DNA of 14,535 bases from a virus. Lineage: Duplodnaviria; Heunggongvirae; Uroviricota; Caudoviricetes. The notes below the pieces were generated by a model. That model made no database searches. It was not told where the DNA came from and saw only the letters and a list, made by a program, of their open reading frames with translations. Of the stretch, positions 1-14,535 are shown in pieces (the first letter of the stretch is position 1; every line of letters begins with the position of its first letter). Location: IMG/VR virus record IMGVR_UViG_2713897161_000003; one strand, given 5' to 3'. The position numbers were made by a program, and so were the translations under genes.

Positions 1-135
1 TCGCTCTGACTTTCCAGAACCATACGGACTGCCCGTTGACGGACTTCGGGGGAAAAACGAGTATTTTTAGTCATCCTGTTTACCTCTTTCTCAGGAAGTT
101 TAGTCTCCAGGATTCCCGGGGCGGTTCATAGCGTC

Positions 136-558
136 ATGGCCGAAATAGCCTGCCGAGCCCTTTCCCCCGCAGTGAACGATCCTGGAACCGCCATTGATGT
201 CATTGGCAGAGGTGTACGTATACTTTCCGCTTACGCGCAGAATAAATCTGATGAAATAGAAGTGAAATATCCTTCTGTACATGTTGCACCACTTCAGAAT
301 AACGATCTACTTGAAGACTTTTTCTCACCTGTTGCGCGCGATGGTGCCAGTATGAGGGAAATTCAGATAAGGGTACTTAAAGGACTGTCGATGCTGAGTA
401 AGGGTTGGCCTGGAATTTTTGCTGAAGCCGCACAAACCCTAGCATTTGAAACATTAGAGCATGCTACTCGTGCTGACCATATAGATTCTGACAGATATCT
501 AATAAAATCAATTTATTATAATTTATTTAGTGGCGAAGATTCTAATAAAAAACCATAG
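136..558 (+). CDS. Hypothetical protein, 140 aa; possibly the 3' part of a disrupted or frameshifted longer gene
   Basis: ATG-initiated ORF with no convincing Shine-Dalgarno. In-frame stops lie upstream at 7-9 and 37-39, while a different frame is open from the window edge to 131. Product not recognised. Confidence 0.35.
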   Translation: MAEIACRALSPAVNDPGTAIDVIGRGVRILSAYAQNKSDEIEVKYPSVHVAPLQNNDLLEDFFSPVARDGASMREIQIRVLKGLSMLSKGWPGIFAEAAQTLAFETLEHATRADHIDSDRYLIKSIYYNLFSGEDSNKKP

Positions 559-688
559 TTGCGGAGCAAGCGATACGGTTGTTGGCAAGTCAAGGGCAAA
601 GCATTCGCGTGAGAGTGGGCGTCTGCTTTGTGCCAGAAGCGGACATACGTAACTTATGATACGCATCGCCAATCATCCGTTTCAAACA

Positions 689-1570
689 TCAACGCGGAAA
701 CGTTTTAAGAATGTAATCCCGAACATAGGCGGTTCGGCTGTTATTAGCCGTCCTTTTGTTCCAGACCAGATAAAGATGATTAGTCGGAGCGAGGTCTGCA
801 GGTGTCACTGAAATCAGGCGACCACTTTTCAGGTCATTGTCACAGTGATAATCCGGCAGCACTGTCCACCCGTGGCCGTCACAGACCAAGTCGCGGATAA
901 TACGTAAATCCGGAATGGTGAATGTAGCCTGCATCTCAGGGGCTCTCTGAAACATGGAGGCCCAGAGCGCTCTAATCAGTGGCAACTCTTCGTCATAAGC
1001 AATCAGCGGTAATGAGGCAAGCGTTTCAGCACCAGGTTCTGATCCGATGATCTCTGACATGGCGGGAGCATGAACAAGGAGCATGCGTTCAGTCAGTAGA
1101 TGTGCATAGCCGTACAGACGGTCATCAGGCATAGATGTGGTAACAGCGAGATCGGCGCTCCCGTCATGCAAAAGGGAATAAATACGTTGCTTATTGCCGG
1201 TATGAAAGCGTAGGCGATACCCCTCCTTCATTAGTGGAGCCATTACTGTCCCAAGCCGGGAATGAATAAAATCTGGCGGTCCTGCCAGATTAATTGTTCC
1301 CCCGCGTACAGAGCCTGACCGGAAAGAGGACAGCTTTTCTTCCAGACCATCAATGAAGGGTGAAACTGAGCGGGCAAGCTCATCCGCAGCTTCGGTTGCC
1401 GTCACGCCTCTGGCCTGCCTGATAAACAGACGCTTACCAACCAGAGTCTCAAGAGACTGGATATGCTGTGACGCCGCGGGCTGAGTGATGCCCAGTAGTT
1501 CTGCCGCCTTTGAAAAGGAGCCAGAGCGATAGGCCTCAAGAAACGTTCGCAGATGGCTCAGATGGCTCAT
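689..1570 (-). CDS. LysR-family transcriptional regulator, 293 aa
   Basis: N-terminal helix-turn-helix typical of LysR regulators (FSKAAELLGITQPAASQHIQSLE), followed by a substrate-binding-domain-length C-terminus. Start overlaps the stop of the upstream ChaC-like gene by 4 nt (ATGA). Confidence 0.9.
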   Translation of the reverse strand: MSHLSHLRTFLEAYRSGSFSKAAELLGITQPAASQHIQSLETLVGKRLFIRQARGVTATEAADELARSVSPFIDGLEEKLSSFRSGSVRGGTINLAGPPDFIHSRLGTVMAPLMKEGYRLRFHTGNKQRIYSLLHDGSADLAVTTSMPDDRLYGYAHLLTERMLLVHAPAMSEIIGSEPGAETLASLPLIAYDEELPLIRALWASMFQRAPEMQATFTIPDLRIIRDLVCDGHGWTVLPDYHCDNDLKSGRLISVTPADLAPTNHLYLVWNKRTANNSRTAYVRDYILKTFPR

Positions 1571-2259
1571 AGTGAAGCGCCTCGCTGATGAAGTTTATCG
1601 TTACAGGGAGCCTCATGCAGAGCAAGGGCCAGTTCACTCACGTAATCATCCCGTATTCCCAACGCACCCAGAGTGGCCTGCAGTTTCCATACATAATCTG
1701 CATTCGTGCCAATGTCTCCACGGGCAGATGCGATGCTCAACGCTACGGTCGCTGTAAGATTGTCCTGTTCATAATGCGGATGCAGTCTGTCTGATACGAA
1801 AGCCAGCGCCTGAATTTCCTCACCGTTTCCTAGCGAAACGTCTGCCCAGACCGGACGGTAAAGACCGGTTATCATCTCGCGCGTCCAGACAATTTCCAGC
1901 TCATTAATAAGAGTCGATTCCGGCAGTCTGAACGCAATACCTTCGGTAATTCCACCTTCGTCGAGCGATAACATCCTGCCGGGGACATCAGGAGTCGCTC
2001 GTCCGGATATCAAACGAATGCAGAAACTGCGCTGCCATCCTTTCAGACGGGCCCGTTGCATTTCTTCAATCGCCAGCACGGGATTCCACATCAATGACCC
2101 GTAGGCAAATATCCAGACAGGAGCACCCGTCGGGCGCTCCTCCAGAGTAGAGTTCATTGATGCGCGTATTTTTTCAGCGTCCCAGAGCATATTCGCCGGG
2201 AGCAGCGCTTCATGCACCCTGACAAATGTGCCATTAAGCATATTTTCACGGGTAAGCAT
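1567..2259 (-). CDS. ChaC-like gamma-glutamylcyclotransferase family protein, 230 aa
   Basis: Contains the YGSLMWNP motif and overall resemblance to E. coli ChaC as recalled (VWIFAYGSLMWNP...GRMLSL.EGG...G.AFRLPE). Lies 11 nt downstream of the MFS stop and overlaps the LysR start. Confidence 0.85.
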   Translation of the reverse strand: MLTRENMLNGTFVRVHEALLPANMLWDAEKIRASMNSTLEERPTGAPVWIFAYGSLMWNPVLAIEEMQRARLKGWQRSFCIRLISGRATPDVPGRMLSLDEGGITEGIAFRLPESTLINELEIVWTREMITGLYRPVWADVSLGNGEEIQALAFVSDRLHPHYEQDNLTATVALSIASARGDIGTNADYVWKLQATLGALGIRDDYVSELALALHEAPCNDKLHQRGASL

Positions 2260-2270
2260 ATAACCTCCCT

Positions 2271-4067
2271 TTACTGGCCTACGATTTTAACCTGTTGAAA
2301 TTTACGACTGTGGCTGCGACGGATTTGTGCAAGCAGCAACAGCAGGCCGAGCAGAGAAACAATCGCACCGCTGATACCGGTATACACGATACCGGCGTGG
2401 CTTATAGTAATGCTGCCCAGTACTGATCCCAGCGCTATACCTGAGTTGAAGCCCGCAATATTCAGGCCGGCAGCAACACCATGCGCATGAGGAGCATGTT
2501 GCTCAGCGACACCAATCAGACGGGCCTGCAGTGCCGGCACTGCGGCAAATGTCACCATACCCAGCAGCGCAACCACAATGCCCATGCTCACCGGTGAGGA
2601 TGACAGCAGCCACATACCAAGCACGACAACAACAATGCCGCTAATGATGAGTATATTGGCACGATTAACCCCCATGCTGTCGGTAAGTTTCCCACCAAGA
2701 ATATTACCTACCGCAGCTGTAATACCGTAAACCAGCATAAACAGACTCACCGTTGCTCCGGTAACCCCTGTCACCTGCGTCAGAATAGGTGCGATAAAGG
2801 TGTAAGCCGTAAACGAGCCTGCATACGCCAGCACCGTAACCAGCGCGCCGGCCAGCAACTTACGGTTAAACAGCATGCCGATATTCTGCATTGCTGAGTC
2901 ACTATGTTCACCGGGCACGCTGCGTACGGGATCTTTCATACCGAACAACAGTCCAAGGAATCCGAACGCGCCAAAAGCGGCAATAGCGCCGAGAACTGGA
3001 CGCCATGAGACGACCCCCCNNNNNNNNNNNNNNNNNNNNNNNNNNNNNNNNNNNNNNNNNNNNNNNNNNNNNNNNNNNNNNNNNNNNNNNNNNNNNNNNN
3101 NNNNNNNNNNNNNNNNNNNNNNNNNNNNNNNNNNNNNNNNNNNNNNNNNNNNNNNNNNNNNNNNNNNNNNNNNNNNNNNNNNNNNNNNNNNNNNNNNNNN
3201 NNNNNNNNNNNNNNNNNNNNNNNNNNNNNNNNNNNNNNNNNNNNNNNNNNNNNNNNNNNNNNNNNNNNNNNNNNNNNNNNNNNNNNNNNNNNNNNNNNNN
3301 NNNNNNNNNNNNNNNNNNNNNNNNNNNNNNNNNNNNNNNNNNNNNNNNNNNNNNNNNNNNNNNNNNNNNNNNNNNNNNNNNNNNNNNNNNNNNNNNNNNN
3401 NNNNNNNNNNNNNNNNNNNNNNNNNNNNNNNNNNNNNNNNNNNNNNNNNNNNNNNNNNNNNNNNNNNNNNNNNNNNNNNNNNNNNNNNNNNNNNNNNNNN
3501 NNNNNNNNNNNNNNNNNNNNNNNNNNNNNNNNNNNNNNNNNNNNNNNNNNNNNNNNNNNNNNNNNNNNNNNNNNNNNNNNNNNNNNNNNNNNNNNNNNNN
3601 NNNNNNNNNNNNNNNNNNNNNNNNNNNNNNNNNNNNNNNNNNNNNNNNNNNNNNNNNNNNNNNNNNNNNNNNNNNNNNNNNNNCGCTCTGCCTGCTTTAC
3701 CCGGTCCAGCAAGACGAGCTGCGGTACTGGATGCCGCAGCCAGAAACAGGCCGTGTCCCAGACCAGCAATGAACCGCGCTAACAGGAGCTGAGGTAATGT
3801 GGCTGCAAACGCGGCCGCCAGACTACCGGCAGTAAACACAACGGCAGTTGTAAGCATTACATTTTTCCGGCTCCAGCTTGCTGTCAGCGCAGACAGTACG
3901 GGTGCCGCGAACGTTGCCCCCAGTGCATAGGTTGTAACCGCTGCCCCGGTCTGCTCCACACCCACACACAACCCCTGAGCCATAACGTCTGTCAGCCCAA
4001 TGGGGACAAATTCCGCGAGTCCGAGCGCAAAGGCACTGATAGTAAACACATAAATAACAAATGGCAT
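2271..4067 (-). CDS. MFS-family transporter, interrupted by an assembly gap; true length unknown
   Basis: Hydrophobic multi-helix translation on both sides of the N-run: 128 aa N-terminal part and 249 aa C-terminal part, consistent with a roughly 400-aa 12-TM MFS permease. The X-run in the ORF track is the gap artefact. Confidence 0.8.
   Translation of the reverse strand: MPFVIYVFTISAFALGLAEFVPIGLTDVMAQGLCVGVEQTGAAVTTYALGATFAAPVLSALTASWSRKNVMLTTAVVFTAGSLAAAFAATLPQLLLARFIAGLGHGLFLAAASSTAARLAGPGKAGRAXXXXXXXXXXXXXXXXXXXXXXXXXXXXXXXXXXXXXXXXXXXXXXXXXXXXXXXXXXXXXXXXXXXXXXXXXXXXXXXXXXXXXXXXXXXXXXXXXXXXXXXXXXXXXXXXXXXXXXXXXXXXXXXXXXXXXXXXXXXXXXXXXXXXXXXXXXXXXXXXXXXXXXXXXXXXXXXXXXXXXXXXXXXXXXXXXXXXXXXXXXXXXXXXXXXXXXXXXXXXXXGVVSWRPVLGAIAAFGAFGFLGLLFGMKDPVRSVPGEHSDSAMQNIGMLFNRKLLAGALVTVLAYAGSFTAYTFIAPILTQVTGVTGATVSLFMLVYGITAAVGNILGGKLTDSMGVNRANILIISGIVVVVLGMWLLSSSPVSMGIVVALLGMVTFAAVPALQARLIGVAEQHAPHAHGVAAGLNIAGFNSGIALGSVLGSITISHAGIVYTGISGAIVSLLGLLLLLAQIRRSHSRKFQQVKIVGQ
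3020..3683. other. Assembly gap, run of 664 N
   Basis: Uninterrupted N characters. Length may be an arbitrary scaffold placeholder. Confidence 0.99.
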
Positions 4068-4787
4068 GACTGGCTCCTGATTTAAGTAAGGAGTGCAGTC
4101 TGATTTAGAAAAACAGATAAATAAAATAATGTAAACTTCAGGCGGGATAAAATTATTTATATCTAAGGCAAAGATTCAATATTCCCACAGCACACAGAAG
4201 TTTTCTGTCTTCAGGGAGAGGAGCTTCGAAAGTTCAGACGAAAAATTCCTGCGGCCCCTTTAAGAGTCAGTTGGCCGGGTTTGGTCCGCTCCTCGCTCAA
4301 AGCGGACTAGAAGGTTAGCTTGCGTCGGACTTGGCGTATTTAAAGAAGTGCTGGTGGTGACTGGTTGTTGTGTTCCATTTCTACAGAACAAAATCACAGA
4401 AACTATACCCAATAGTTATATTGAATCAATGATGAGACAGCCTCATATTTATCAGAACTGGTGTACGTCCAATACAGGAGGTTGTCGTGCTGGTTCTCAA
4501 ATGTGCGCTAGCTATTGCGGCTGTAATGGCAATTTATTGTCTTGCTGTTGTTCTTATGGATCGCCTTTCTGATTGATTTTATATTGGCGAGGTGACGGGA
4601 GTTAAGTAGAATTGCTGCGGGTGCTTGAGGCTATCTGCCTCAGGCATGAACACCAAAGGCAGATAGAGAAAAGCCCCAGTTAACATTACGCGTCCTGCAA
4701 GACGCTTAACATTAATCTGAGGCTCAATCTATGAACGGCAAATCTAGGTTAGCCTCTTACGTGCCGAAAGGCAAGGAGAAGCAGGCT

Positions 4788-4943
4788 ATGAAGCAGCAAA
4801 AGGCGATGTTAATCGCCCTGATCGTCATCTGTTTAACCGTTATAGTGACGGTACTGGTAACGAGGAAAGACCTCTGCGAGGTACGAATCCGAACCGACCA
4901 GACGGAGGTCGCTGTCTTCACAGCTTACGAACTTGGGGAGTAA
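4788..4943 (+). CDS. hok: Hok/Gef-family type I toxin, 51 aa; an in-frame upstream ATG at 4731 gives a 70-codon mok-like reading frame
   Basis: Translation MKQQKAMLIALIVICLTVIVTVLVTRKDLCEVRIRTDQTEVAVFTAYELGE closely resembles HokD/HokC as recalled. Shine-Dalgarno AAGGAGAA lies 8 nt upstream of the ATG at 4788. Confidence 0.85.
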   Translation: MKQQKAMLIALIVICLTVIVTVLVTRKDLCEVRIRTDQTEVAVFTAYELGE

Positions 4944-5406
4944 GAGGACCAGCGGGGAGAAATCCCCGCAACCTCTGATGTATTATGCATCCTCAACGCA
5001 GCCACAGTTAACCTGATTGGCGGGTTTACTTCATCTGTAAATATTTTTATAAAAATAATGCCCACGCACAGCATAAAACAAAAAGTATTACAGATAAAAA
5101 AGGAACGTAATGTGCAGATTTGTTGTTTTCCATATTTACTCACCTTAATATGATTAACCCTGATAGGGTTGTTATTTCAGCGGTTTTCAAATGAGATATT
5201 ATGGTGATCTGACAAATTTGCATAACATTAAAATTTAATTTGTTTAACCGCTTTTAATAATAAGCGTTGTTTGTATCCCAGCAATCTGTTGTTTGGTTTT
5301 TATTCCATTAAGGTGGGGGCTTTACACTGGAACCAGTTTATTTATACTTTATACGTCAGCCTGAACAACTGGCATCTGCTGCACTGCGCCATCGAGAGAT
5401 TGAGAA

Positions 5407-6006
5407 ATGGCGCATATACAACTGGTCAAACAAACTTCTTCTGGTTTACTTCTCCCGGCGACGCCGGAGAGTTGCGATTTTCTGCATCAAATCAAAATAG
5501 GTGAGTGGATACACGTAGACTTTAAGCGTGTGCGTAACTACGCATTCCACAAGCGTTTTTTCAAACTCCTGCAACTGGGATTCGATTACTGGACTCCGGT
5601 CGGTGGGGCGATCACGCCTCGCGAACGAGAACTGCTGTCTGGTTTCGTTGATTACCTGTGCGAATCAGTTGGTCGGGAACACACGCCAGCCCTGAGTGAT
5701 GCCGCAGAGCAATACCTTAACACCGTTGCGACTCGTAGAACCCGGGATACGGCGTTGCTAAAGTCGTTTGAGGCTTTCCGCGAGTGGGTAACCATTCAGG
5801 CCGGATTTTACACCGAGCATATTTATCCGGACGGTAGCCGTGGGCGTCGGGCAAAATCCATCGCTTTTGCGAATATGGACGAAGTCGAGTTTCAGCAGGT
5901 TTATAAATCTGTACTGAATGTGCTGTGGAACTGGATTCTGTTCCGTAAATTCTCCTCTCAGGAGGAAGTTGAAAATGTGGCCGCACAACTACTGGAGTTT
6001 GCGTAA
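5407..6006 (+). CDS. Phage nin-region protein, 199 aa (DUF1367-like, assigned from memory)
   Basis: Long ORF in the early-right orientation immediately upstream of the ybcO-like gene. Its stop overlaps the next start (TAATG), indicating translational coupling. Confidence 0.7.
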   Translation: MAHIQLVKQTSSGLLLPATPESCDFLHQIKIGEWIHVDFKRVRNYAFHKRFFKLLQLGFDYWTPVGGAITPRERELLSGFVDYLCESVGREHTPALSDAAEQYLNTVATRRTRDTALLKSFEAFREWVTIQAGFYTEHIYPDGSRGRRAKSIAFANMDEVEFQQVYKSVLNVLWNWILFRKFSSQEEVENVAAQLLEFA

Positions 6007-6473
6007 TGGTGAATTTACGTAAAGCGGCTAAAGGCCAGATGTGCCAGATCAGAATCCCTGGCTACTGCAATCACAATCCCGAAACCTCTGTGCTGGCGCA
6101 TTACAGGCTGGCGGGGACGTGCGGAACAGCGACAAAACCACACGATATGCAGGCGGCGATAGCCTGTAGCTCATGCCACGATCTAATCGACGGGCGGGTA
6201 AAAACCAGCGATTACACCAAAGAAGAATTGCGCCTGATGCATGCTGAAGGGGTTTTCGCACACAAGAAATCTGGAGAAAGAAAGGTCATTTATGATTTAC
6301 CCAACGAATACAGGAAAAAGCGGAGAACACCTTCGCCTCACCACGCTGGAAAGTGTCTGGATTCAGGGAAAACTACGTATGTGGGGGCGCTGGTCGTATA
6401 TTGGCGGTGGCAGGTCAGGGAATATGTTCAATCAGTTGTTGGCATCCAAAAAACTGACGAAAACAGCCATTAA
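6006..6473 (+). CDS. YbcO-like phage protein (DUF1364, putative nuclease) with an atypical ~60-aa C-terminal extension
   Basis: The first ~90 aa (LRKAAKGQMCQIRIPGYCNHNPETSVLAH...ACSSCHD) match the Cys-rich prophage YbcO family as recalled, which is ~96 aa. This ORF runs to 155 aa and overlaps the Q gene in another frame. Confidence 0.65.
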   Translation: MVNLRKAAKGQMCQIRIPGYCNHNPETSVLAHYRLAGTCGTATKPHDMQAAIACSSCHDLIDGRVKTSDYTKEELRLMHAEGVFAHKKSGERKVIYDLPNEYRKKRRTPSPHHAGKCLDSGKTTYVGALVVYWRWQVREYVQSVVGIQKTDENSH

Positions 6474-6834
6474 TGAAGCCCTGCGCAGAATGAAAAAAGC
6501 GGGAATAGAGAAAGCTGAGCTGGAAGCGTTTTTGCGAGAGATGATCAACGGCAAGCAAAAGAGCTGGCTGGCGCATTGTACTGATGCAGAGGCGTTATGT
6601 ATTGATCGAGTCATAAGTGAGGTGCTGGCAGAGCATCCAGGATTGATTTGCATTCTCCGGCAACGCTATGAAGGGCGGGGGATGACTAAGCGCAAAATGG
6701 CTGAATTGCTAAATGATGCACACCCAGAGTGGTGTTTTAGCACATGCGAAAAACGGATTGCTAATTGGTTAGCTGTTGCTGAGTATGCCCTATATATTCC
6801 CATGCGTGAATCATTTGCTGAGAAAATGGCTTGA
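6292..6834 (+). CDS. Late-gene antiterminator Q (21/82-type family), 180 aa from the ATG at 6292; the ORF track offers an alternative start at 6241
   Basis: N-terminal LESVWIQGKLRMWGRWSY motif resembles the Q-antiterminator family. Positioned immediately upstream of a short terminated leader and the lysis genes. GGAGAAAGAAAGG lies upstream of the ATG at 6292. Confidence 0.75.
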   Translation: MIYPTNTGKSGEHLRLTTLESVWIQGKLRMWGRWSYIGGGRSGNMFNQLLASKKLTKTAINEALRRMKKAGIEKAELEAFLREMINGKQKSWLAHCTDAEALCIDRVISEVLAEHPGLICILRQRYEGRGMTKRKMAELLNDAHPEWCFSTCEKRIANWLAVAEYALYIPMRESFAEKMA

Positions 6835-6914
6835 TTTCTTACGTATAAACTGCTTCAATTTTGCTATGCTTCGTAAAGCTGTATCGCGAGGCGGATTGCA
6901 GACATGGACATCGT

Positions 6915-6941
6915 AAAAAAACCGCTTAATGCGGTTTTTTT
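6915..6941 (+). terminator. Intrinsic terminator, tR'-like, ~80 nt downstream of Q
   Basis: AAAAAACCGC / TTAAT loop / GCGGTTTTTT hairpin followed by a T-run. A possible extended -10 (TGcTATGCT, 6862-6870) lies upstream, giving the short-leader arrangement expected of a Q-modified late promoter. Confidence 0.6.
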
Positions 6942-7878
6942 ACGTCAGGAAAGCAGGGGAGAATGCTGCTAGTTGGGCAACTGGTCTTTCTGCTCCAAAT
7001 TATAACAGAGACCAGTTATAGTTTCGGTGCTGTGTTTTTTTTACAATATTGTGATAACACATTGCTGGCGGGAGTTTTGATATTTCTTGGCAGGGGCTGA
7101 TGATGCGTTATCCTGATGTCGTCAACTCATATAAAATGAGATGAGAGATCATTGCAGGGTGGTTTGTAATTCGCTGTTTAGCGGGACAATATGTTGTCTG
7201 ATACAAGACACCCGACGCCTCAGATTACTATAATAAAGATGAAGCATCCTTTGTATTGACCAACCACCTGTTTAGGCGGTTCTTTTTGGGCTGGTTTATT
7301 GTATGCAAAATGATTATTAAAAAGGTTGTGTTAATAACAAAATCCGAAATAATATGCCTGCATATTTTTATCTTGCTTATATTCTGCATATTGTGCATAG
7401 CAGGCTCATCCCTGCAATCAAAACTGTATGATGAGTATTTTTTGTTTTCCTTTTTTCCAGTCATCTGATGATGACCTGCTTCTTTTTAATCCGGATCGAC
7501 ATCAGTTTTTTAAGATAATTCCTGCGAGTTATATGCATAAATGCCACAAACTCCGCATTTTATGTGGTTGGGAGTTGCCGGGCGCGCAGTGAGTTTGCTA
7601 AGAAAACTCCTGCATGGTGAATCCCCCTGTGCGGTGGGGTGATACCATTAACCTTTTCTGTCGCCGACAGGTATCACGAACATTTTGTTCACCGGGAGGC
7701 ACCCGGCACCATGCACTTCAATAGATTCTCTCCACATTATGGATATTCTTTCAGAATATCCCACGCAGACTTTGTGTAAATGTTAACAAATGTGCGTTTT
7801 ATTTGATCTGATTCGCTGTTTGAGCGTCCAAAACAACGGTATATATAATCCTTTACTATATGACATATGTGAGGAAAA

Positions 7879-8307
7879 ATGGGTTTTCGTAGCGCATCAA
7901 TTCCTACGTTGATTATTAGTGGGATTATTATCGGGTGCACTGATGCTGTATCGACAAATTATCATGACCGTACATCATATTACTCCGATAAAGCAATAGA
8001 GACACAGTATGTGAGTTCATCTGAACGTACTTCTGATGTTAGTGAGGATATCCGTCTGTATGCCCATCAAATCAAGAGCGCCATCGAAAAACAGTTCGGG
8101 GATGCGAGTAAGTATTCAGGAAAAGAGTGTACACTGAGAATGCATATGGCCCCGAATGGCCTTCTACTGGAGGTTAAAAGAGAAAGTGGAGACCTCGATT
8201 TATGTCGTGAAGCGATGAATGCGATAAAGAATGCTGATATACCTGCCCCCCCTTCGCCGGAAGTATATAAAGTATTTCAAAATGGGGTGCTGGATTTTAA
8301 ACCCTGA
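7879..8307 (+). CDS. Lipoprotein with TolA C-terminal (domain III)-like domain, 142 aa
   Basis: Signal peptide with lipobox IIGC and Thr at +2. The C-terminal ~85 aa (YAHQIKSAIEKQFGDASKYSGKECTLRMHMAPNGLLLEVKRESGDLDLCREAMNAIKNADIPAPPSPEVYKVFQNGVLDFKP) closely parallel the C-terminus of E. coli TolA as recalled, including two Cys spaced 25 residues apart. Shine-Dalgarno GAGG precedes the ATG. Confidence 0.8.
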   Translation: MGFRSASIPTLIISGIIIGCTDAVSTNYHDRTSYYSDKAIETQYVSSSERTSDVSEDIRLYAHQIKSAIEKQFGDASKYSGKECTLRMHMAPNGLLLEVKRESGDLDLCREAMNAIKNADIPAPPSPEVYKVFQNGVLDFKP

Positions 8308-8457
8308 TATTTATTGTTTTGTAATAAACGGTTTCGGCTTAGGTTTGTTCTGACACAGCTACGGCACTGAGCTAAATTTAGCGGATAGTCAGCTCTGAGC
8401 CAGTGGCGGACGTAACAACTACTATTGCTGAGATTTTAATGGATTGAGGAGCAAGAA

Positions 8458-8853
8458 GTGGGATTAAAGAAAATCGTTATGTTGACTTTTTGGGTCGGTT
8501 TTGTTGCGGGATGCACACCTTTACACCCTTCAGATTGCCACAAAACTACTGCTACAGGTAGTTGCAGTTCAGGACGCTGGGATGATCAGGATGAATGGGG
8601 GGCGCAAGCGCGGGGAATCAGAGCTGCAATTAATGCCAAACTTGATGAGCCGCATAACTGGAAAGGGAAAAAATGCAGGTTGCATATGGAATTCTCTCAG
8701 GATGGCACGGCGTTAAAAATATCTACCAGTAACGGTGATAAAGCCTATTGCGAAGCGATAAAGTCCGCAGCTCATAAAGCCAAATTTCCGGCCTTCAACA
8801 ATCCGGAAGTCTACAGAGATTTTCAGAAATCTGGCTTTGACATGCGAGGTTAG
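8458..8853 (+). CDS. Diverged paralog of the TolA-domain-III-like lipoprotein, 131 aa, GTG start
   Basis: Lipobox FVAGC with Thr at +2. C-terminal KKCRLHMEFSQDGTALKISTSNGDKAYCEAIKSAAHKAKFPAFNNPEVYRDFQKSGFDMRG keeps the Cys-25-Cys spacing and the EVY..FQ motif of the upstream copy. Shine-Dalgarno GAGGAG lies 6 nt before the GTG. Confidence 0.75.
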   Translation: MGLKKIVMLTFWVGFVAGCTPLHPSDCHKTTATGSCSSGRWDDQDEWGAQARGIRAAINAKLDEPHNWKGKKCRLHMEFSQDGTALKISTSNGDKAYCEAIKSAAHKAKFPAFNNPEVYRDFQKSGFDMRG

Positions 8854-8978
8854 CTCTTCAATTACTATATCTCATTCATAGCAAACTGACAGATTTGATG
8901 ATGTTCTATATACGAAACCTGTGATGTCAAGTCTGAGCTAATACAAATAAACATAATATCAGAGAAATACATTTTATT

Positions 8979-9002
8979 AGCTCGCTACGGCGAGCTTTTT
9001 AT
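8979..9002 (+). terminator. Intrinsic terminator downstream of the lipoprotein pair
   Basis: AGCTCGC / TACG tetraloop / GCGAGCT hairpin followed immediately by TTTTTAT. Confidence 0.65.
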
Positions 9003-9104
9003 ATTGCATCGTCTCCAGCATATATATCAATTAAGGCTCTGATTGATGTGTCTGAAAGCCTACACATAATAACTATGCCATCCGTTCCGTGCGGAGGTGA
9101 GGCT

Positions 9105-9320
9105 ATGAAATCCATGGACAAAATTTCAACAGGCATTGCCTACGGCACCTCCGCAGGCAGTGCTGGCTACTGGTTTTTACAGTTGCTCGATAGAGTAACT
9201 CCGTCACAGTGGGCTGCAATCGGTGTGCTGGGTAGTCTGGTATTTGGCCTGCTGACGTACCTGACAAACCTTTATTTCAAGATTAAAGAAGATAAGCGCA
9301 AGGCTGCGAGAGGTGAATAA
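9105..9320 (+). CDS. Class II holin of the phage 21 S (pinholin) family, 71 aa, with dual-start motif
   Basis: [71 protein letters not shown] resembles S21/EssD as recalled. The Met1-Lys-Ser-Met4 arrangement fits the antiholin/holin dual start. GGAGGTGAGG precedes the ATG at 9105. Confidence 0.9.
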
Positions 9321-9817
9321 TGCCTCCATCATTACGAAAAGTCGTTGCTGCTGCTATTGGTGGCGGAGCAATTGCTATAGCATCAGTGTTAATCACTGGC
9401 CCAAGTGGTAACGATGGTCTGGAAGGTGTCAGCTACATACCATACAAAGATATTGTTGGTGTATGGACTGTATGTCACGGGCATACAGGAAAAGACATCA
9501 TGCTCGGTAAAACGTATACCAAAGCAGAATGCAAAACACTCTTGAATAAAGACCTTGCCACGGTCGCCAGACAAATTAACCCGTACATCAAAGTCGATAT
9601 ACCGGAAACAACGCGCGGCGCTCTTTACTCATTCGTTTACAACGTGGGTGCTGGCAATTTCAGAACATCGACGCTTCTTCGCAAAATAAACCAGGGCGAT
9701 ATCAAAGGCGCATGTGATCAGCTACGTCGCTGGACATATGCTGGCGGTAAGCAATGGAAAGGTCTCATGACTCGTCGTGAGATTGAGCGTGAAATCTGTT
9801 TGTGGGGTCAGCAATGA
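9320..9817 (+). CDS. SAR endolysin (lysozyme, R21/RrrD-like), 165 aa
   Basis: N-terminal Gly/Ala-rich signal-anchor-release segment ([21 protein letters not shown]) followed by a lysozyme-like domain. Start overlaps the holin stop (TAATG). Confidence 0.92.
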
Positions 9818-10278
9818 ACAGAGTAACCGCGATTATCTCCGCTCTGGTTATCTGCATCGTCGTCTGCCTGTCATGGGGTGTTAATCATTACCGTGATAAC
9901 GCCATCGCCTACAAAGAACAGCGCGACAAAAATGCCAGAGAACTGAAGCTGGCGAACGCGGCAATTACTGACATGCAGATGCGTCAGCGTGATGTTGCTG
10001 CGCTCGATGCAAAATACACGAAGGAGTTAGCTGATGCGAAAGCTGAAAATGATGTTCTGCGTGATGATGTTGCCGCTGGTCGTCGTCGGTTGCACATCAA
10101 AGCAGTCTGTCAGTCAGTGCGTGAAGCCACCACCGCCTCCGGCGTGGATAATGCAGCCTCCCCCCGACTGGCAGACACCGCTGAACGGGATTATTTCACC
10201 CTCCGGGAACGACTGGTAATGATGCAGGCCCAACTTGAAGGTGCTCAGCAATACATAACCGAGCAGTGTTTAAAGTAA
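9814..10278 (+). CDS. Rz-type i-spanin, 154 aa from the ATG at 9814; the ORF track gives a GTG alternative at 9802
   Basis: N-terminal transmembrane helix then a coiled-coil-like periplasmic domain. The ATG overlaps the endolysin stop (ATGA). Resembles RzpD as recalled. Confidence 0.88.
10034..10219 (+). CDS. Rz1-type o-spanin lipoprotein, 61 aa, embedded in the +1 frame of Rz
   Basis: Lipobox LVVVGC and a proline-rich mature region ([15 protein letters not shown]), entirely nested within Rz. Shine-Dalgarno AAGGAG lies 7 nt upstream. Confidence 0.88.
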
Positions 10279-10415
10279 AATCTTAACTACAATATGATTC
10301 ATTTTGATGATTGTTTCATAAGGAACAGTGAAGTAAGATCTAAGAGGAGTTAAATTTTATACAGTATAATCATAATATTGCAGCAAGGTGGTTATAATTG
10401 AAAGAATATTTAGAT

Positions 10416-11873
10416 ATGAATACATCTCATGTAAGAGTTGTTACTCATATGTGTGGGTTCCTGGTTTGGCTCTATAGTCTTTCAATGTTGCCACCAATGG
10501 TTGTAGCATTGTTTTATAAAGAAAAAAGCCTGTTCGTTTTCTTTATAACTTTCGTTATATTTTTTTGCATTGGTGGCGGAGCGTGGTATACAACTAAGAA
10601 ATCTGGCATTCAATTACGTACCCGTGATGGGTTTATTATAATTGTAATGTTTTGGATTTTGTTTTCTGTTATTAGTGCATTCCCTTTATGGATTGACTCA
10701 GAACTTAATTTAACGTTCATTGATGCTCTGTTTGAAGGGGTTTCTGGAATAACAACAACAGGAGCAACTGTAATTGATGATGTTAGTTCATTACCTCGGG
10801 CATATTTGTACTATCGGTCACAGTTAAATTTTATAGGTGGTTTAGGAGTTATTGTTCTGGCGGTTGCTGTATTGCCATTATTGGGTATTGGTGGTGCAAA
10901 GCTTTATCAGTCAGAAATGCCGGGGCCATTTAAGGATGACAAACTCACTCCCCGCCTGGCCGATACGTCACGGACACTGTGGATAACTTATTCTTTATTA
11001 GGTATTGCTTGTATTGTCTGTTATAGACTTGCAGGAATGCCTTTGTTTGATGCTATTTGTCACGGGATTTCCACAGTTTCGCTTGGTGGTTTCTCAACTC
11101 ATAGCGAGAGTATCGGATATTTTAATAACTATTTGGTTGAGCTGGTGGCTGGTTCTTTTTCCCTGCTATCGGCTTTCAACTTCACTCTTTGGTATATTGT
11201 TATTAGCAGGAAAACGATAAAACTTTTAATCAGAGATATTGAACTTCGTTTCTTTCTGTTAATAGCCTTAGGGGTGATCATTGTTACCTCTTTCCAGGTC
11301 TGGCATATAGGTATGTATGACTTGCATGGAAGTTTTATTCATTCGTTTTTTCTTGCCAGCTCCATGCTCACTGATAATGGTTTAGCTACGCAGGATTATG
11401 CAAGTTGGCCCACGCACACGATAGTGTTTTTGCTGTTGTCAAGTTTCTTTGGGGGATGTATAGGTTCAACTTGTGGTGGAATTAAGTCACTTCGATTTCT
11501 TATACTTTTCAAACAAAGCAAACACGAGATAAATCAGCTTTCTCATCCCAGAGCGTTGTTGAGTGTAAATGTAGGAGGGAAGATAGTTACAGATCGTGTA
11601 ATGAGGTCTGTATGGAGTTTCTTTTTTCTTTATACTCTCTTCACGGTGTTTTTTATACTGGTGTTAAATGGTATGGGATATGATTTTCTTACATCATTTG
11701 CAACAGTGGCTGCATGTATTAATAATATGGGATTAGGTTTTGGGGCTACTGCATCGTCATTCGGAGTGCTTAATGACATTGCAAAATGTTTAATGTGCAT
11801 AGCTATGATTCTTGGTCGCCTTGAAATTTATCCTGTTATTATATTGTTTTCAGGTTTTTTTTGGCGCTCCTAA
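10416..11873 (+). CDS. trkG: TrkG/TrkH-family potassium uptake protein, 485 aa from the ATG at 10416
   Basis: Polytopic membrane protein recognised as the Rac-prophage TrkG (MNTSHVRVVTHMCGFLVWLYSLSMLPPMVVALFYKEKS...). The gene is markedly AT-rich relative to its neighbours. The ORF-track start at 10398 is TTG. Confidence 0.92.
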   Translation: MNTSHVRVVTHMCGFLVWLYSLSMLPPMVVALFYKEKSLFVFFITFVIFFCIGGGAWYTTKKSGIQLRTRDGFIIIVMFWILFSVISAFPLWIDSELNLTFIDALFEGVSGITTTGATVIDDVSSLPRAYLYYRSQLNFIGGLGVIVLAVAVLPLLGIGGAKLYQSEMPGPFKDDKLTPRLADTSRTLWITYSLLGIACIVCYRLAGMPLFDAICHGISTVSLGGFSTHSESIGYFNNYLVELVAGSFSLLSAFNFTLWYIVISRKTIKLLIRDIELRFFLLIALGVIIVTSFQVWHIGMYDLHGSFIHSFFLASSMLTDNGLATQDYASWPTHTIVFLLLSSFFGGCIGSTCGGIKSLRFLILFKQSKHEINQLSHPRALLSVNVGGKIVTDRVMRSVWSFFFLYTLFTVFFILVLNGMGYDFLTSFATVAACINNMGLGFGATASSFGVLNDIAKCLMCIAMILGRLEIYPVIILFSGFFWRS

Positions 11874-12035
11874 TATATGGCTGATTTATAATTGTGAGTT
11901 TAATATTATGTTGACTCACTCATTGATCCAATACCTAACTTTACCAGCAACCCCTCCGTCCCCAGTAGCACTGGCTGCTGGGGTGCGTTTTATTCATAAA
12001 GCAAGGCTGTATGAGCGAGAAATTAAAGATAGTCT

Positions 12036-12542
12036 ATGCGTGGCTGGATGATTAAGGGCAAGCCCGCCAGTGATCGAGCCGTATTGTCTCAGGAACAGGA
12101 CGGCATTAAATCACACACCCACAGCGCCAGCGTATCCAGTACGGATTTGGGGACGAAAACCACATCGTCGTTTGATTACGGCACTAAATCCACGAATAAC
12201 ACTGGTGCGCATACCCATAGTGTTAGCGGTACGGCTGCTTCAGCCGGTGCACATACCCATTCGATGACATTTGTTTCAGGTGGTTCCAGTGGTGCTCCGG
12301 GAAGTGGAGCATCTGATTATTCTAAATACAGTGTTAACACTTCTTCTGCAGGCGCTCATACGCACTCTGTATCGGGTACTGCTGCAAGCGCAGGTGCACA
12401 CGCACATACTGTGGGTATTGGTGCTCATACGCACTCGGTTGCGATTGGCTCACATGGACACACCATCACCGTTAACGCTGCTGGTAACGCGGAAAACACC
12501 GTCAAAAACATCGCATTTAACTATATTGTGAGGCTTGCATAA
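12036..12542 (+). CDS. Side-tail-fibre C-terminal tip fragment (Stf-like), 168 aa, His-rich repeats
   Basis: Multiple stops lie in-frame just upstream, so the ORF is not fused to any fibre shaft. Seven HxH motifs (mostly GAHTHS) sit in Gly/Ser/Thr-rich sequence. Stop overlaps the tfa start (TAATG). Confidence 0.7.
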
Positions 12543-13117
12543 TGGTATTCAGAATGAGTGAACAACCACGGACCATAACAATTTATAATCTGCTGGCCGG
12601 AACTAATGAATTTATTGGTGAAGGTGATGCATATATTCCGCCTCATACAGGTCTGCCAGCAAACAGTACCGATATTGCACCGCCAGATATTCCGGCAGGC
12701 TTCGTGGCTGTTTTCAACAGTGATGAGGCATCGTGGCATCTCGTTGAAGATCATCGGGGTAAAACGGTTTATGACGTGGCTTCCGGCGACGCGTTATTTA
12801 TTTCTGAACTCGGTCCGTTACCGGAAAATGTTACCTGGTTATCGCCGGAAGGGGAGTTTCAGAAGTGGAACGGCACAGCCTGGGTGAAGGATACGGAAGC
12901 AGAAAAACTGTTCCGGATCCGGGAGGCGGAAGAAACAAAAAACAACCTGATGCAGGTAGCCAGTGAGCATATTGCGCCGCTTCAGGATGCTGCAGATCTG
13001 GAAATTGCAACGGAGGAAGAAATCTCGTTGCTGGAAGCATGGAAAAAGTATCGGGTATTGCTGAACCGTGTTGATACGTCAACTTCACAGGATATTGAAT
13101 GGCCAGCACTGCCGTAG
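12542..13117 (+). CDS. tfa: Tail fibre assembly protein, 191 aa
   Basis: Resembles TfaR/TfaQ of E. coli cryptic prophages as recalled ([73 protein letters not shown]). Translationally coupled to the fibre-tip ORF. Confidence 0.9.
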
Positions 13118-13214
13118 GGTAAAACATATAAATTCTATAATTAGATGTATCTTTCCATTTACGGCAAGGAAGGGGGCTTGGAAGACGTAAAGCATCTCAC
13201 ACCGAGATTATTTT

Positions 13215-13805
13215 TTATATGTCAGGTGTCTGAAGTTTTGCTTTGGCTCTTAAAATGGTTTGCCGCGAGGTTTTGAATTCCCGGGCAATGGCACTTATAC
13301 TTACACCTGACTTAATTCGTTCGAATACCACCTGTTTCTGTTCTTCATTTAACACAGGTGGTCGACCAAAACGTTTCCCTGCGCCGCGGGCTCTTACTAT
13401 CCCGGAATGAGTGCGTTCAAGTAAAAGGTCTCGTTCAAATTCAGCGACTGCTGAAATTACTTGCATCATCATTTTTCCTGTTGGACTGGTCAGGTCAATG
13501 CCCCCCAATGCTAAGCAATGCACTCTGATACCTGTTTCGGTCAGTTGTTCCACTGTTTTCCTGATATCCATTGCATTACAACCAAGGCGATCCAGTTTTG
13601 TCACAATCAATTGATCACCACATTTCAGGCGAGCAAGCAACCGGTTAAAACCAGGACGCTCACTGGTTGCTGCTGAGCCACTAATGTGTTCTTCGATTAT
13701 TTGCTGAGGTTTGATTTTAAAACCTGCACTTTCGATTTCCCGGCGTTGATTTTCGGTGGTCTGATCCAGCGTTGATATCCGACAGTAAGCAAAAATTTGA
13801 GACAT
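13215..13805 (-). CDS. pin: Serine-recombinase DNA invertase of the Pin/Gin/Hin family, 196 aa
   Basis: N-terminal catalytic motif [10 protein letters not shown] (active-site Ser), resolvase-type domain and C-terminal helix-turn-helix. Convergent with tfa. Confidence 0.95.
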
Positions 13806-14121
13806 AGTGAGACTCTATACGAAATTGGTGTTCATATCATAATGCATCTCAGAAAATAATTATGATTATTTTTGTGCATATTTGTATGTACACGTTCGAA
13901 AATAAACGAATGCGTATGCAACCCCGTAATTTTGGTGAGACCCAAAATCGATTTTGTGAAAAATGGCTTTAACTCGGTTTGTTTTTCGAGTTCCGGGCGG
14001 ACTCAAGGAAGAAGAATAGTGTTGCGTGTTATTTTAACCAGATTTCAAGTTGTTTGGTCGTGGAAAAATGGAGCAAAATGTTGTTAAAGTGGAAAAATGA
14101 TAAAAAAGTAAGTTTATTATA

Positions 14122-14355
14122 TTACATTTTACCATTTAAATTTTGGTTGTCTTTAAGAACTGATATCGCTGTTTGTAATAATTCTTTGTTATCCAGCCAT
14201 GATTTTTTCTTTATGTTTCCTTCAATGTAATCAAGCAATGTTCTGGTATTGATAGGTCTTCCCTGTTTTGCTACTTCCACTACAGCATCCCCTAGGATAA
14301 TTCTTACTTCAGGAAGCTGCGCAGGGAACCACTTTAGGGTGTCTTTTGATTTCAT
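14122..14355 (-). CDS. YdfK/YnaE-family prophage protein (cold-shock-associated), 77 aa from the internal Met
   Basis: MKSKDTLKWFPAQLPEVRIILGDAVVEVAKQGRPINTRTLLDYIEGNIKK.SWLDNKELLQTAISVLKDNQNLNGKM matches the 77-aa YdfK/YnaE paralogs as recalled. AAGGAA lies 7 nt upstream of this ATG. The ORF-track start at 14433 is a likely over-extension. Confidence 0.75.
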   Translation of the reverse strand: MKSKDTLKWFPAQLPEVRIILGDAVVEVAKQGRPINTRTLLDYIEGNIKKKSWLDNKELLQTAISVLKDNQNLNGKM

Positions 14356-14406
14356 GAAGATATTCCTTAAAATATTATTGATTTTCATTGCGATATTGTA
14401 TGTCTG

Positions 14407-14535
14407 TGGATTTGCCCCTATATTTCCAGACACCTGTTATCACTTAACCCATTACTGGCCTGCTGCCGCAGATATTCCCGTGGCGAGCGATAACCCAGTG
14501 CACTATGCGGATGCCATTCGTTATAATGCTCGAAC
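14407..14535 (-). mobile_element. IS2 element end (terminal inverted repeat plus C-terminal codons of transposase InsD); element continues beyond the window
   Basis: TGGATTTGCCCCTATATTTCCAGACACCTGTTATCACTTAACC matches the IS2 right inverted repeat as recalled. The minus-strand translation of 14418-14534 ([38 protein letters not shown]) matches the InsD C-terminus, with stop at 14418-14420. Confidence 0.85.

Follow-up and report, generated by a model that had tools for sequence, protein, structure and literature searches.

The viral record IMGVR_UViG_2713897161_000003, a 14,535-nucleotide stretch of DNA that we call the window, carries hok, nin genes, a Q-like antiterminator, TolA-like lipoproteins, lysis genes, trkG, a tail fiber tip with tfa, pin, and a ydfK-like gene, and it raises the question of whether selection has pared a prophage down to its useful genes. 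An original prediction, made from the sequence alone, answered that it has: from position 4068 to position 14406, a pared-down prophage would abut chromosomal genes, stripped of its integrase, repressor, replication, and morphogenesis genes. Our analysis leads to a different answer. With high confidence, we identify the window as the inner and right-hand portion of a cryptic lambdoid prophage of the Rac family, integrated at the 5′ end of ttcA, on what is very probably a short-read contig ending on both sides in multicopy insertion sequence (IS) elements. The locus is a variant of the already known cryptic prophage Rac, and the predicted prophage boundaries and the apparent early-gene loss are artifacts of the window.

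Gene identities were taken from Pfam, PHROG, NCBIfam, and Rfam scans of the 14,535-base window, and these profile scans found every gene listed above. The window is Escherichia coli chromosomal DNA. Over positions 129 to 14406 it is 100% identical to the complete genome of strain SW071610 (H1), with which co-linearity begins at position 126, and dozens of further genomes are at least 98.8% identical to it. We used four annotated complete genomes (H1, H9, H10, and H21) as comparators and drew population counts from 5,426 complete genomes; L numbers denote loci read in relatives, L001 being the locus in H1.

In all four comparators, gene order and position are those of the K-12 cryptic prophage Rac. 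Left of a cargo island that includes the window's first genes, they carry DUF977, a replisome organizer, YdaT- and YdaS-like genes, a divergent repressor-like gene, ydaF, and sieB, followed by kilR, ydaE, racC, recE, recT, ralR, rcbA, xisR, intR, and ttcA, with intR about 12 kb from the window's left side. Right of ydfK, they carry ynaM and then uspF and ompN. A 26-bp att core, TTGTTCAGGTTGTATTGTTCTTTCTT, occurs in L001 at positions 1527 and 29367, and K-12 Rac is bounded by an identical core. Mapped onto L001, the window spans positions 14998 to 28683, wholly inside this 27.9-kb att-flanked element; in H1, the right-hand core is reached 684 bases past the match to window position 14406, or approximately 555 bases past the window end.

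Sequence comparison with K-12 Rac (ttcA to ttcC, 23 kb) supports the same assignment. Window positions 9834 to 12037 (the 3′ end of rzpR, trkG, and the start of ynaK) are 99.7% identical to K-12 Rac, positions 12339 to 14406 (the end of stf, tfaR, pinR, and ynaE) are 98.7% identical, and the early region of the co-linear genomes, from intR to a ydaG-like gene, is 99.7 to 99.9% identical, with the same att core and chromosomal neighbors. K-12 Rac differs in its immunity and replication alleles, and it lacks the counterpart of window positions 1 to 9833 (the island, hok/sok, nin, Q, the genes for the TolA C-terminal-domain [TolA-C] proteins, S, R, and most of Rz) because of a deletion of its own from ydaW to rzpR. 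The high-identity synteny of the Rac-specific genes trkG, tfaR, pinR, and ynaE places the element in the Rac family, and the order of a Q-like antiterminator followed by S, R, and Rz/Rz1 on one strand, with all of these open reading frames (ORFs) open, is the late and lysis order of lambdoid prophages. The original prediction is right in that the prophage is a degraded one, lambdoid and of Rac type. Rac is present in 69% of 638 strains (PMC6379469), ttcA is the integration site of Rac and Rac-like prophages, and the K-12 copy has been described as a defective ancient fossil with physiological roles (PMC4632033).

Profile scans found no integrase, repressor, replication, or head and tail genes within the window, and a tRNA scan of the window found no tRNA gene. 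The early genes seem to be missing because of where the window ends. MB19 and ET881, among the top near-identical window matches, carry intR 12.1 to 12.5 kb left of the window match, and a 25-kb stretch from recT to ydfK is found as one place, at a coverage of at least 80%, in 236 complete genomes, against 297 that carry the island. Contiguity of the early region with the content of the window is therefore the rule among complete genomes with the island. For the window's own genome, the co-linear genomes lead us to expect the same early region beyond the left IS element. The original prediction had named contiguity of the missing modules beyond the window as evidence against degradation; for the early modules, such contiguity is what relatives show. 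Of the losses it claimed, that of the integrase, repressor, and replication genes falls away, since these adjoin the window leftward in relatives, while that of the morphogenesis genes stands and is marked by a deletion junction at positions 12035 to 12037.

Read from the co-linear genomes, the left part of the element would run from attL in ttcA through intR, xisR, rcbA, ralR, recT, recE, racC, ydaE, kilR, and sieB to the immunity genes, YdaT, the replisome organizer, and DUF977, and then into a 6.3-kb cargo island, in whose DUF2254 gene the window starts. To the right of the island would come hok/sok, a NinB-like gene, ybcO, Q, a region with an STnc100 match, the two TolA-C lipoproteins, S, R, Rz/Rz1, and trkG, and then a deletion scar (ynaK′ joined to ′stf), tfaR, pinR, and ydfK, with ynaM and attR beyond the window.

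The genes to the left of position 4068, taken in the original prediction for chromosomal genes at a prophage boundary, are prophage cargo in the co-linear genomes H1, H9, H10, and H21. The island comprises five genes, for a BCCT transporter, a DUF2254 membrane protein, a LysR-family regulator, a ChaC-like gamma-glutamylcyclotransferase, and an MFS transporter (L001 positions 12092 to 18344). It lies between the Rac replication and nin regions and occurs in 297 of the 5,426 complete E. coli genomes (about 5%). Within the window are the 3′ part of the IS-cut DUF2254 gene (129 to 558, plus strand; PF10011 profile positions 279 to 366 of 368), the LysR-family gene (689 to 1570, minus strand; profile matches and annotation in relatives), the ChaC-like gene (1567 to 2259, minus strand; PF04752, 3e-35), and the MFS gene (2271 to 4067, minus strand), which is split by a run of N with MFS_1 matches in both halves. 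The DUF2254 gene is whole in H1 and H10, preceded by the BCCT transporter gene. No att site is recognizable at position 4068 because the window lies wholly inside the prophage and the genes to the left are cargo.

It might still be argued that the genes from BCCT to MFS are a native island of the chromosome, with a distinct prophage remnant on either side. The G+C content of the island (0.47 to 0.54) exceeds that of much of the late region, and the BCCT-DUF2254 pair alone is also found in roughly 1,560 genomes at a different chromosomal site, with approximately 94% identity, beside IS elements near the fec genes of ST131-type chromosomes, as well as at 99.9% identity on a resistance plasmid, where it adjoins relB and a relE fragment. 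Against this, a single pair of att cores brackets the whole element, the island is absent from 95% of complete genomes, and both K-12 Rac and ON470595 (vB_EcoS-683R6), a near-complete Rac at ttcA, carry the same flanking phage modules without it. The corresponding slot of ON470595, between its replication and nin genes, is instead filled by unrelated cargo annotated as LygF, a kinase, an FtsH-like protein, and an S8 peptidase. We consider the two-remnant arrangement extremely unlikely.

The run of 664 N (positions 3020 to 3683) falls on a poly-C tract within the MFS gene and outside the 4068-to-14406 interval of the original prediction. We rejected it as a place where phage modules might be hidden: in 10 of 10 relatives, its two flanks belong to a single MFS gene in one orientation and are 68 nt apart, so that the assembly gap corresponds there to about 68 bases of that gene and not, as the original prediction had allowed, to the missing modules. 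The length of the tract varies: L002, whose gene is intact, has C8, and H1, whose gene is frameshifted, has C10. The tract is a likely cause of both the assembly break and a phase-like frameshifting of the MFS gene.

Both ends of the window lie in IS elements. At the left end of the window, the inverted left end of an IS3-family element (1 to 128, minus strand; start of the transposase ORF, MTKNTRFSPEVRQRAVRMVLESQS) interrupts the DUF2254 gene; it matches an annotated IS3 family transposase at 100%, and this sequence is found in 3,589 genomes at a median of 3 copies. At the other end of the window lies the right end of an IS2-type element of the IS3 family (14407 to 14535, minus strand; transposase C terminus), inserted upstream of ydfK. 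It is 100% identical to the IS element interrupting rrrD in strain PKF8 (L004) and 96% identical to IS2E, a copy held by the K-12 prophage Qin. Position 14406 is accordingly an IS2-type insertion point and not attR, and the prophage does not end there. Two further loci, L018 (GCA_030003075.1) and L019 (an ENA metagenome scaffold), share the identical IS2 junction after the base matching window position 14406. Their contigs likewise stop inside an IS2-type element, and leftward they carry intact DUF2254, BCCT, DUF977, and replisome organizer genes. The window thus has at each end about one k-mer length of a multicopy repeat (128 and 129 nt), lengths that would fit an assembler k-mer of 127, and we infer that both ends are probably contig breaks at IS elements.

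Three observations weigh against our interpretation. The junction between the left IS element and DUF2254 had no match in public genome-contig and metagenome-contig collections. IS-bounded or large losses do occur in relatives, L010 lacking everything from kil through the island and L011 being bounded by IS1. The 664-N gap is some 600 bases longer than the relatives' sequence and leaves room for a small insertion. The first two, together with the presence of IS copies at both window ends and a recE′-to-MFS′ deletion in L010, favor an alternative in which IS elements drove a deletion or rearrangement in this strain, so that its early region is absent or unlinked. Set against that alternative are the intact left-hand genes of L018 and L019, which are the closest relatives sharing the IS2 junction; the 128- and 129-nt IS ends, which have the look of contig breaks at simple insertions; and the contiguity observed in 236 of the 297 complete genomes with the island. 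A strain-specific rearrangement is on balance unlikely, and we retain the reading of an IS-ended contig within an otherwise ordinary Rac-family prophage.

The loss of packaging, head, and tail genes, by comparison, is real. Between trkG and the tail fiber gene, the window holds only the first 9 codons of the ParB-like gene ynaK (12011 to 12037, plus strand), joined to the C-terminal 168 codons of the side tail fiber gene stf (12036 to 12542, plus strand; Phage_fiber repeat and phrog_295 positions 639 to 794 of 794). A three-way alignment places the junction at positions 12035 to 12037, where ynaK codon 9 meets the stf C terminus through a TAT microhomology, and co-linearity with the window breaks exactly at position 12037 in K-12, H9, H10, H21, and ON470595. 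Downstream of trkG, ON470595 carries ParB/ynaK, the small and large terminase subunits, portal, minor head protein, coat, and connectors, and further downstream the tail tube, ydaY, tape measure, and tail tip genes; more than 20 kb of packaging, head, and tail region is therefore absent from the window. K-12 Rac, too, keeps 6.5 kb (ynaK, ydaY, ynaA, lomR::IS5, and stfR) deleted from the element in the window, which is unable to produce particles.

This deletion is recent. The exact ynaK/stf junction occurs in 5 of the 5,426 complete genomes, and MB19 covers the junction query completely. Other genomes have kept different remnants: H9 retains ParB, a coat fragment, connector genes, the tail terminator, the tail tube, and ydaY, H21 retains coat and a full tail fiber, and the Rac head module (at least 80% of a 5.9-kb terminase-portal-coat block) is present in at least 715 genomes. 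The rarity of the junction and the differing remnants elsewhere point to a structural region lost by nested, lineage-specific deletions, the last of them recent. That last loss was an illegitimate-recombination deletion through the 3-nt microhomology, confined to a small clade.

Immediately to the left of the scar, trkG (10416 to 11873, plus strand; PF02386, 1e-144) encodes a Trk K+ transporter paralogue. In ON470595 it likewise lies between the lysis (Rz) and packaging (ParB) genes, and because it holds the same place in a near-complete Rac, we read it as an ancestral Rac moron and not as a residue of trimming. To the right of the scar lie the tail fiber assembly gene tfaR (12542 to 13117, plus strand; profile match, with an Rfam IS009 match inside at 12885 to 13083), the serine DNA invertase gene pinR (13215 to 13805, minus strand; Resolvase and HTH_7), and ynaE/ydfK (14122 to 14355, minus strand; annotation, PF27475 YnaE, and phrog_2718). 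Around pinR, no inverted repeats that could delimit an invertible segment were found in positions 11800 to 13900.

The right-end tfa-pin-ydfK module (12351 to 14406) is 99.0% identical to that of Qin, an unrelated prophage of K-12, about as close as it is to K-12 Rac (98.7%), which suggests gene conversion or exchange between resident prophages, as judged from these identities. Qin otherwise differs from the element described here: it occupies another chromosomal site in the opposite orientation, has different Q, lysis, and cargo genes (csp and relBE), and lacks trkG.

These findings bear directly on the claim that selection, and not random decay, shaped the remnant. In that account, the remnant begins at position 4068, its early and structural genes were lost, and genes for toxicity, regulation, lysis, and benefit to the host were maintained by selection. 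The window does contain neither early nor structural genes, as this account would have it, but in all of the co-linear genomes the genes left of position 4068 have hok on one side and Rac replication genes on the other, and copies of the att core bracket the element as a whole. The ORFs for nin, Q, and lysis functions are open. Against the ON470595 homologues, ratios of nonsynonymous to synonymous divergence are low (dN/dS of 0.05 to 0.2; dS of 0.06 to 0.6) for the genes encoding the NinB-like protein, Q, holin, and lysozyme; these low values, however, reflect divergence between mosaic phage alleles. For the Rac-specific genes, dN/dS is underpowered as a test of selection: trkG, pinR, ydfK, and tfaR differ from K-12 by 1 to 6 substitutions each, those in tfaR being 5 nonsynonymous and 1 synonymous.

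Gene frequencies give the account a similarly mixed reception. Counted across complete genomes without regard to mosaicism or phylogeny, trkG outnumbers the Rac head module (1,539 versus 715 genomes), but intR, one of the genes supposedly lost, has any match in 2,919 genomes (1,832 at a coverage of at least 80%), compared with 1,551 for trkG. Hence trkG is commoner than the head genes and far from universal.

The lesions found in the window and its relatives strike the classes of gene that were supposedly retained, among them ybcO, MFS, rrrD, LysR, and trkG. H1 and H9 carry a frameshift in the MFS gene, H10 and H21 have IS3-family elements in the endolysin gene rrrD, and the repressor-like gene is split in H10. 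The window's own ybcO gene (6006 to 6295, plus strand; PF07102), which encodes a putative nuclease (YbcO, DUF1364), has lost 1 nt in a T5 run close to the 3′ end, as judged by alignment with the intact gene of L002; the shifted ORF runs to position 6473, and the gene is annotated as frameshifted in H1 also. We traced this allele to 726 blocks of public assemblies and read ten places. In L010 (GCA_052418515.1, locus 7048 to 8062), recE′ runs directly into the 5′ part of MFS. Gone are kilR, sieB, the genes for immunity and replication, and most of the island, and int, xis, and recT are kept. This fusion arose independently, as another large deletion affecting this prophage. Among other carriers of the allele, L017 has lost Rz, trkG, and the stf scar, L011 is bounded by IS1 and has lost trkG through the right end, and L015 has IS1 and IS66 in its LysR gene. 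Deletions and disruptions thus have not spared cargo, regulatory, or lysis genes.

We therefore regard the account of selective retention from position 4068 as very unlikely and return to that of a window cut from a longer, decaying Rac-family prophage. The apparent retention bias consists of window edges and one rare deletion. Selection on the remnant is neither shown nor excluded, and the pattern looks like continuing decay, in which the element would be eroding by lineage-specific deletions, IS insertions, and homopolymer frameshifts across cargo, lysis, regulatory, and structural genes alike.

Selective retention is already published as a general idea, and the literature on the domestication of defective prophages lends the original account some support. 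Across 1,384 prophages, replication, packaging, and release genes were reported to be lost preferentially from defective prophages, and tail fiber, integrase, and host-beneficial genes to be kept (PMC7744054); purifying selection on defective-prophage genes is described in PMC7744054 and in Bobay et al. 2014, as cited in PMC6379469. Like the "grounded" or domesticated prophages of this framework (Bobay et al. 2014; Khan et al. 2020, PMC7744054; and Ramisetty and Sudhakari 2019, PMC6379469), the element in the window is a defective lambdoid prophage passed on by vertical inheritance; its packaging and structural genes are gone, and its tail fiber, recombinase, and cargo genes are kept. The window adds nothing beyond that framework; what the locus itself shows is continuing, unbiased-looking decay.

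The remaining genes of the window run from the island to the lysis cassette. Between the MFS gene and hok sits an unannotated hydrophobic ORF of 29 codons, MLVLKCALAIAAVMAIYCLAVVLMDRLSD (4487 to 4576, plus strand), found by reading the sequence, with a GTG start and a strong AGGAGG Shine-Dalgarno motif 5 nt upstream. It has no PHROG or NCBIfam match and could encode a small membrane protein or a toxin or be a chance ORF. The segment from 3684 to 4588 is common to the window and strain PKF8, which has a DUF1971 gene in place of hok. The hok/sok cassette (4589 to 5045) and the interval between Q and S (6893 to 9090) both have sharp mosaic module boundaries.

The hok/sok locus (4619 to 4943, plus strand) consists of a sok/hok-leader RNA match at 4619 to 4793 (Rfam RF01794, 111.7 bits; cutoff, 59) and a hok coding sequence at 4788 to 4943, which matches PF01848 (75.8 bits, 1.9e-21) and is 91.8% identical to hokD of K-12 Qin; a Hok-family gene and the leader RNA structure are thus both present. 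hok/sok is a type I toxin-antitoxin pair, trkG encodes a K+ uptake subunit, and Pin is a serine invertase, functions that the copies in the window may share. Downstream of hok/sok, the nin region encodes a NinB/Orf-like recombination mediator (DUF1367; 5407 to 6006, plus strand; PF07105, 1.5e-97, and phrog_319) ahead of ybcO. The Q-like late-gene antiterminator (DUF1133) follows at 6292 to 6834 (plus strand; PF06576, 3.5e-107, and phrog_753, 2e-79); its match to the Phage_antitermQ profile is exactly at the cutoff.

The interval between Q and S contains a match to the STnc100 small RNA family (7582 to 7768, plus strand; RF02076, 86.6 bits; cutoff, 47), which starts approximately 750 bases downstream of the Q-like gene. 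By its position and its size of roughly 190 nt, we take it to resemble the short late-promoter leader transcript of lambdoid phages. Two genes for TolA-C proteins follow, the first with a lipobox-like IIGC motif (7879 to 8307, plus strand; PF06519, 2.4e-23, and phrog_5772 positions 3 to 128 of 128) and the second, a tandem paralogue of the first, with a VAGC lipobox (8479 to 8853, plus strand; profile and phrog_5772 matches). Both match phrog_5772, a family of unknown function, over its full length, so that protein 1 is probably full length and not the partial tolA pseudogene annotated by PGAP. Its gene is a moron between Q and S, in an interval that in ON470595 carries tRNA-Thr and tRNA-Gly genes instead of TolA-C genes. 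Homologues of the TolA-C proteins occur on plasmids at 87 to 88% identity.

None of the cargo, TolA-C, nin, pin, or ydfK proteins matched a defense system in PADLOC, and no paper was found that links TolA-domain lipoproteins of prophages to superinfection exclusion. At a low probability, the slot between DUF977/ydaW and nin in Rac-family prophages may be a hotspot of cargo exchange and the tandem TolA-C lipoproteins might be periplasmic decoys against TolA-dependent phages or colicins.

The lysis cassette (9105 to 10278, all on the plus strand; PF04971, PF00959, PF03245, and PF06085) comprises an S21-type holin gene (9105 to 9320), a lysozyme gene (9320 to 9817), and Rz (9814 to 10278) with an embedded Rz1 (10034 to 10219), and none of these ORFs has an internal stop. 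By analogy with lambdoid phages, late transcription antiterminated by Q would pass through the STnc100 match and the TolA-C genes and continue into S, R, and Rz/Rz1.

A close likeness to this part of the window is ON470595, which has the same order of nin, Q, S, R, Rz, trkG, and ParB, with 99.0% identity over window positions 9090 to 12037 and 92.5% over positions 5045 to 6893, and which continues after ParB into the terminase, portal, coat, tail tube, tape measure, and tail tip genes that the window lacks. The phage Rac-SA53 (KU052037) groups with such near-complete Rac-type prophages and phages. CP-933R/Sp10 of O157:H7 are also Rac-type prophages, whose transmissibility is discussed in PMC4632033.

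Because the "missing" early modules adjoin the window in near-identical genomes, the finding is an ordinary one. It carries a caution: a contig broken at IS elements, together with cargo mistaken for chromosome, can mimic a prophage pared down to useful genes. Rac is among the best-studied cryptic prophages, and the comparison gives a clean picture of how the element decays, from near-complete prophages, with the head module in at least 715 complete genomes, to the heavily deleted form in the window, whose junction occurs in 5.

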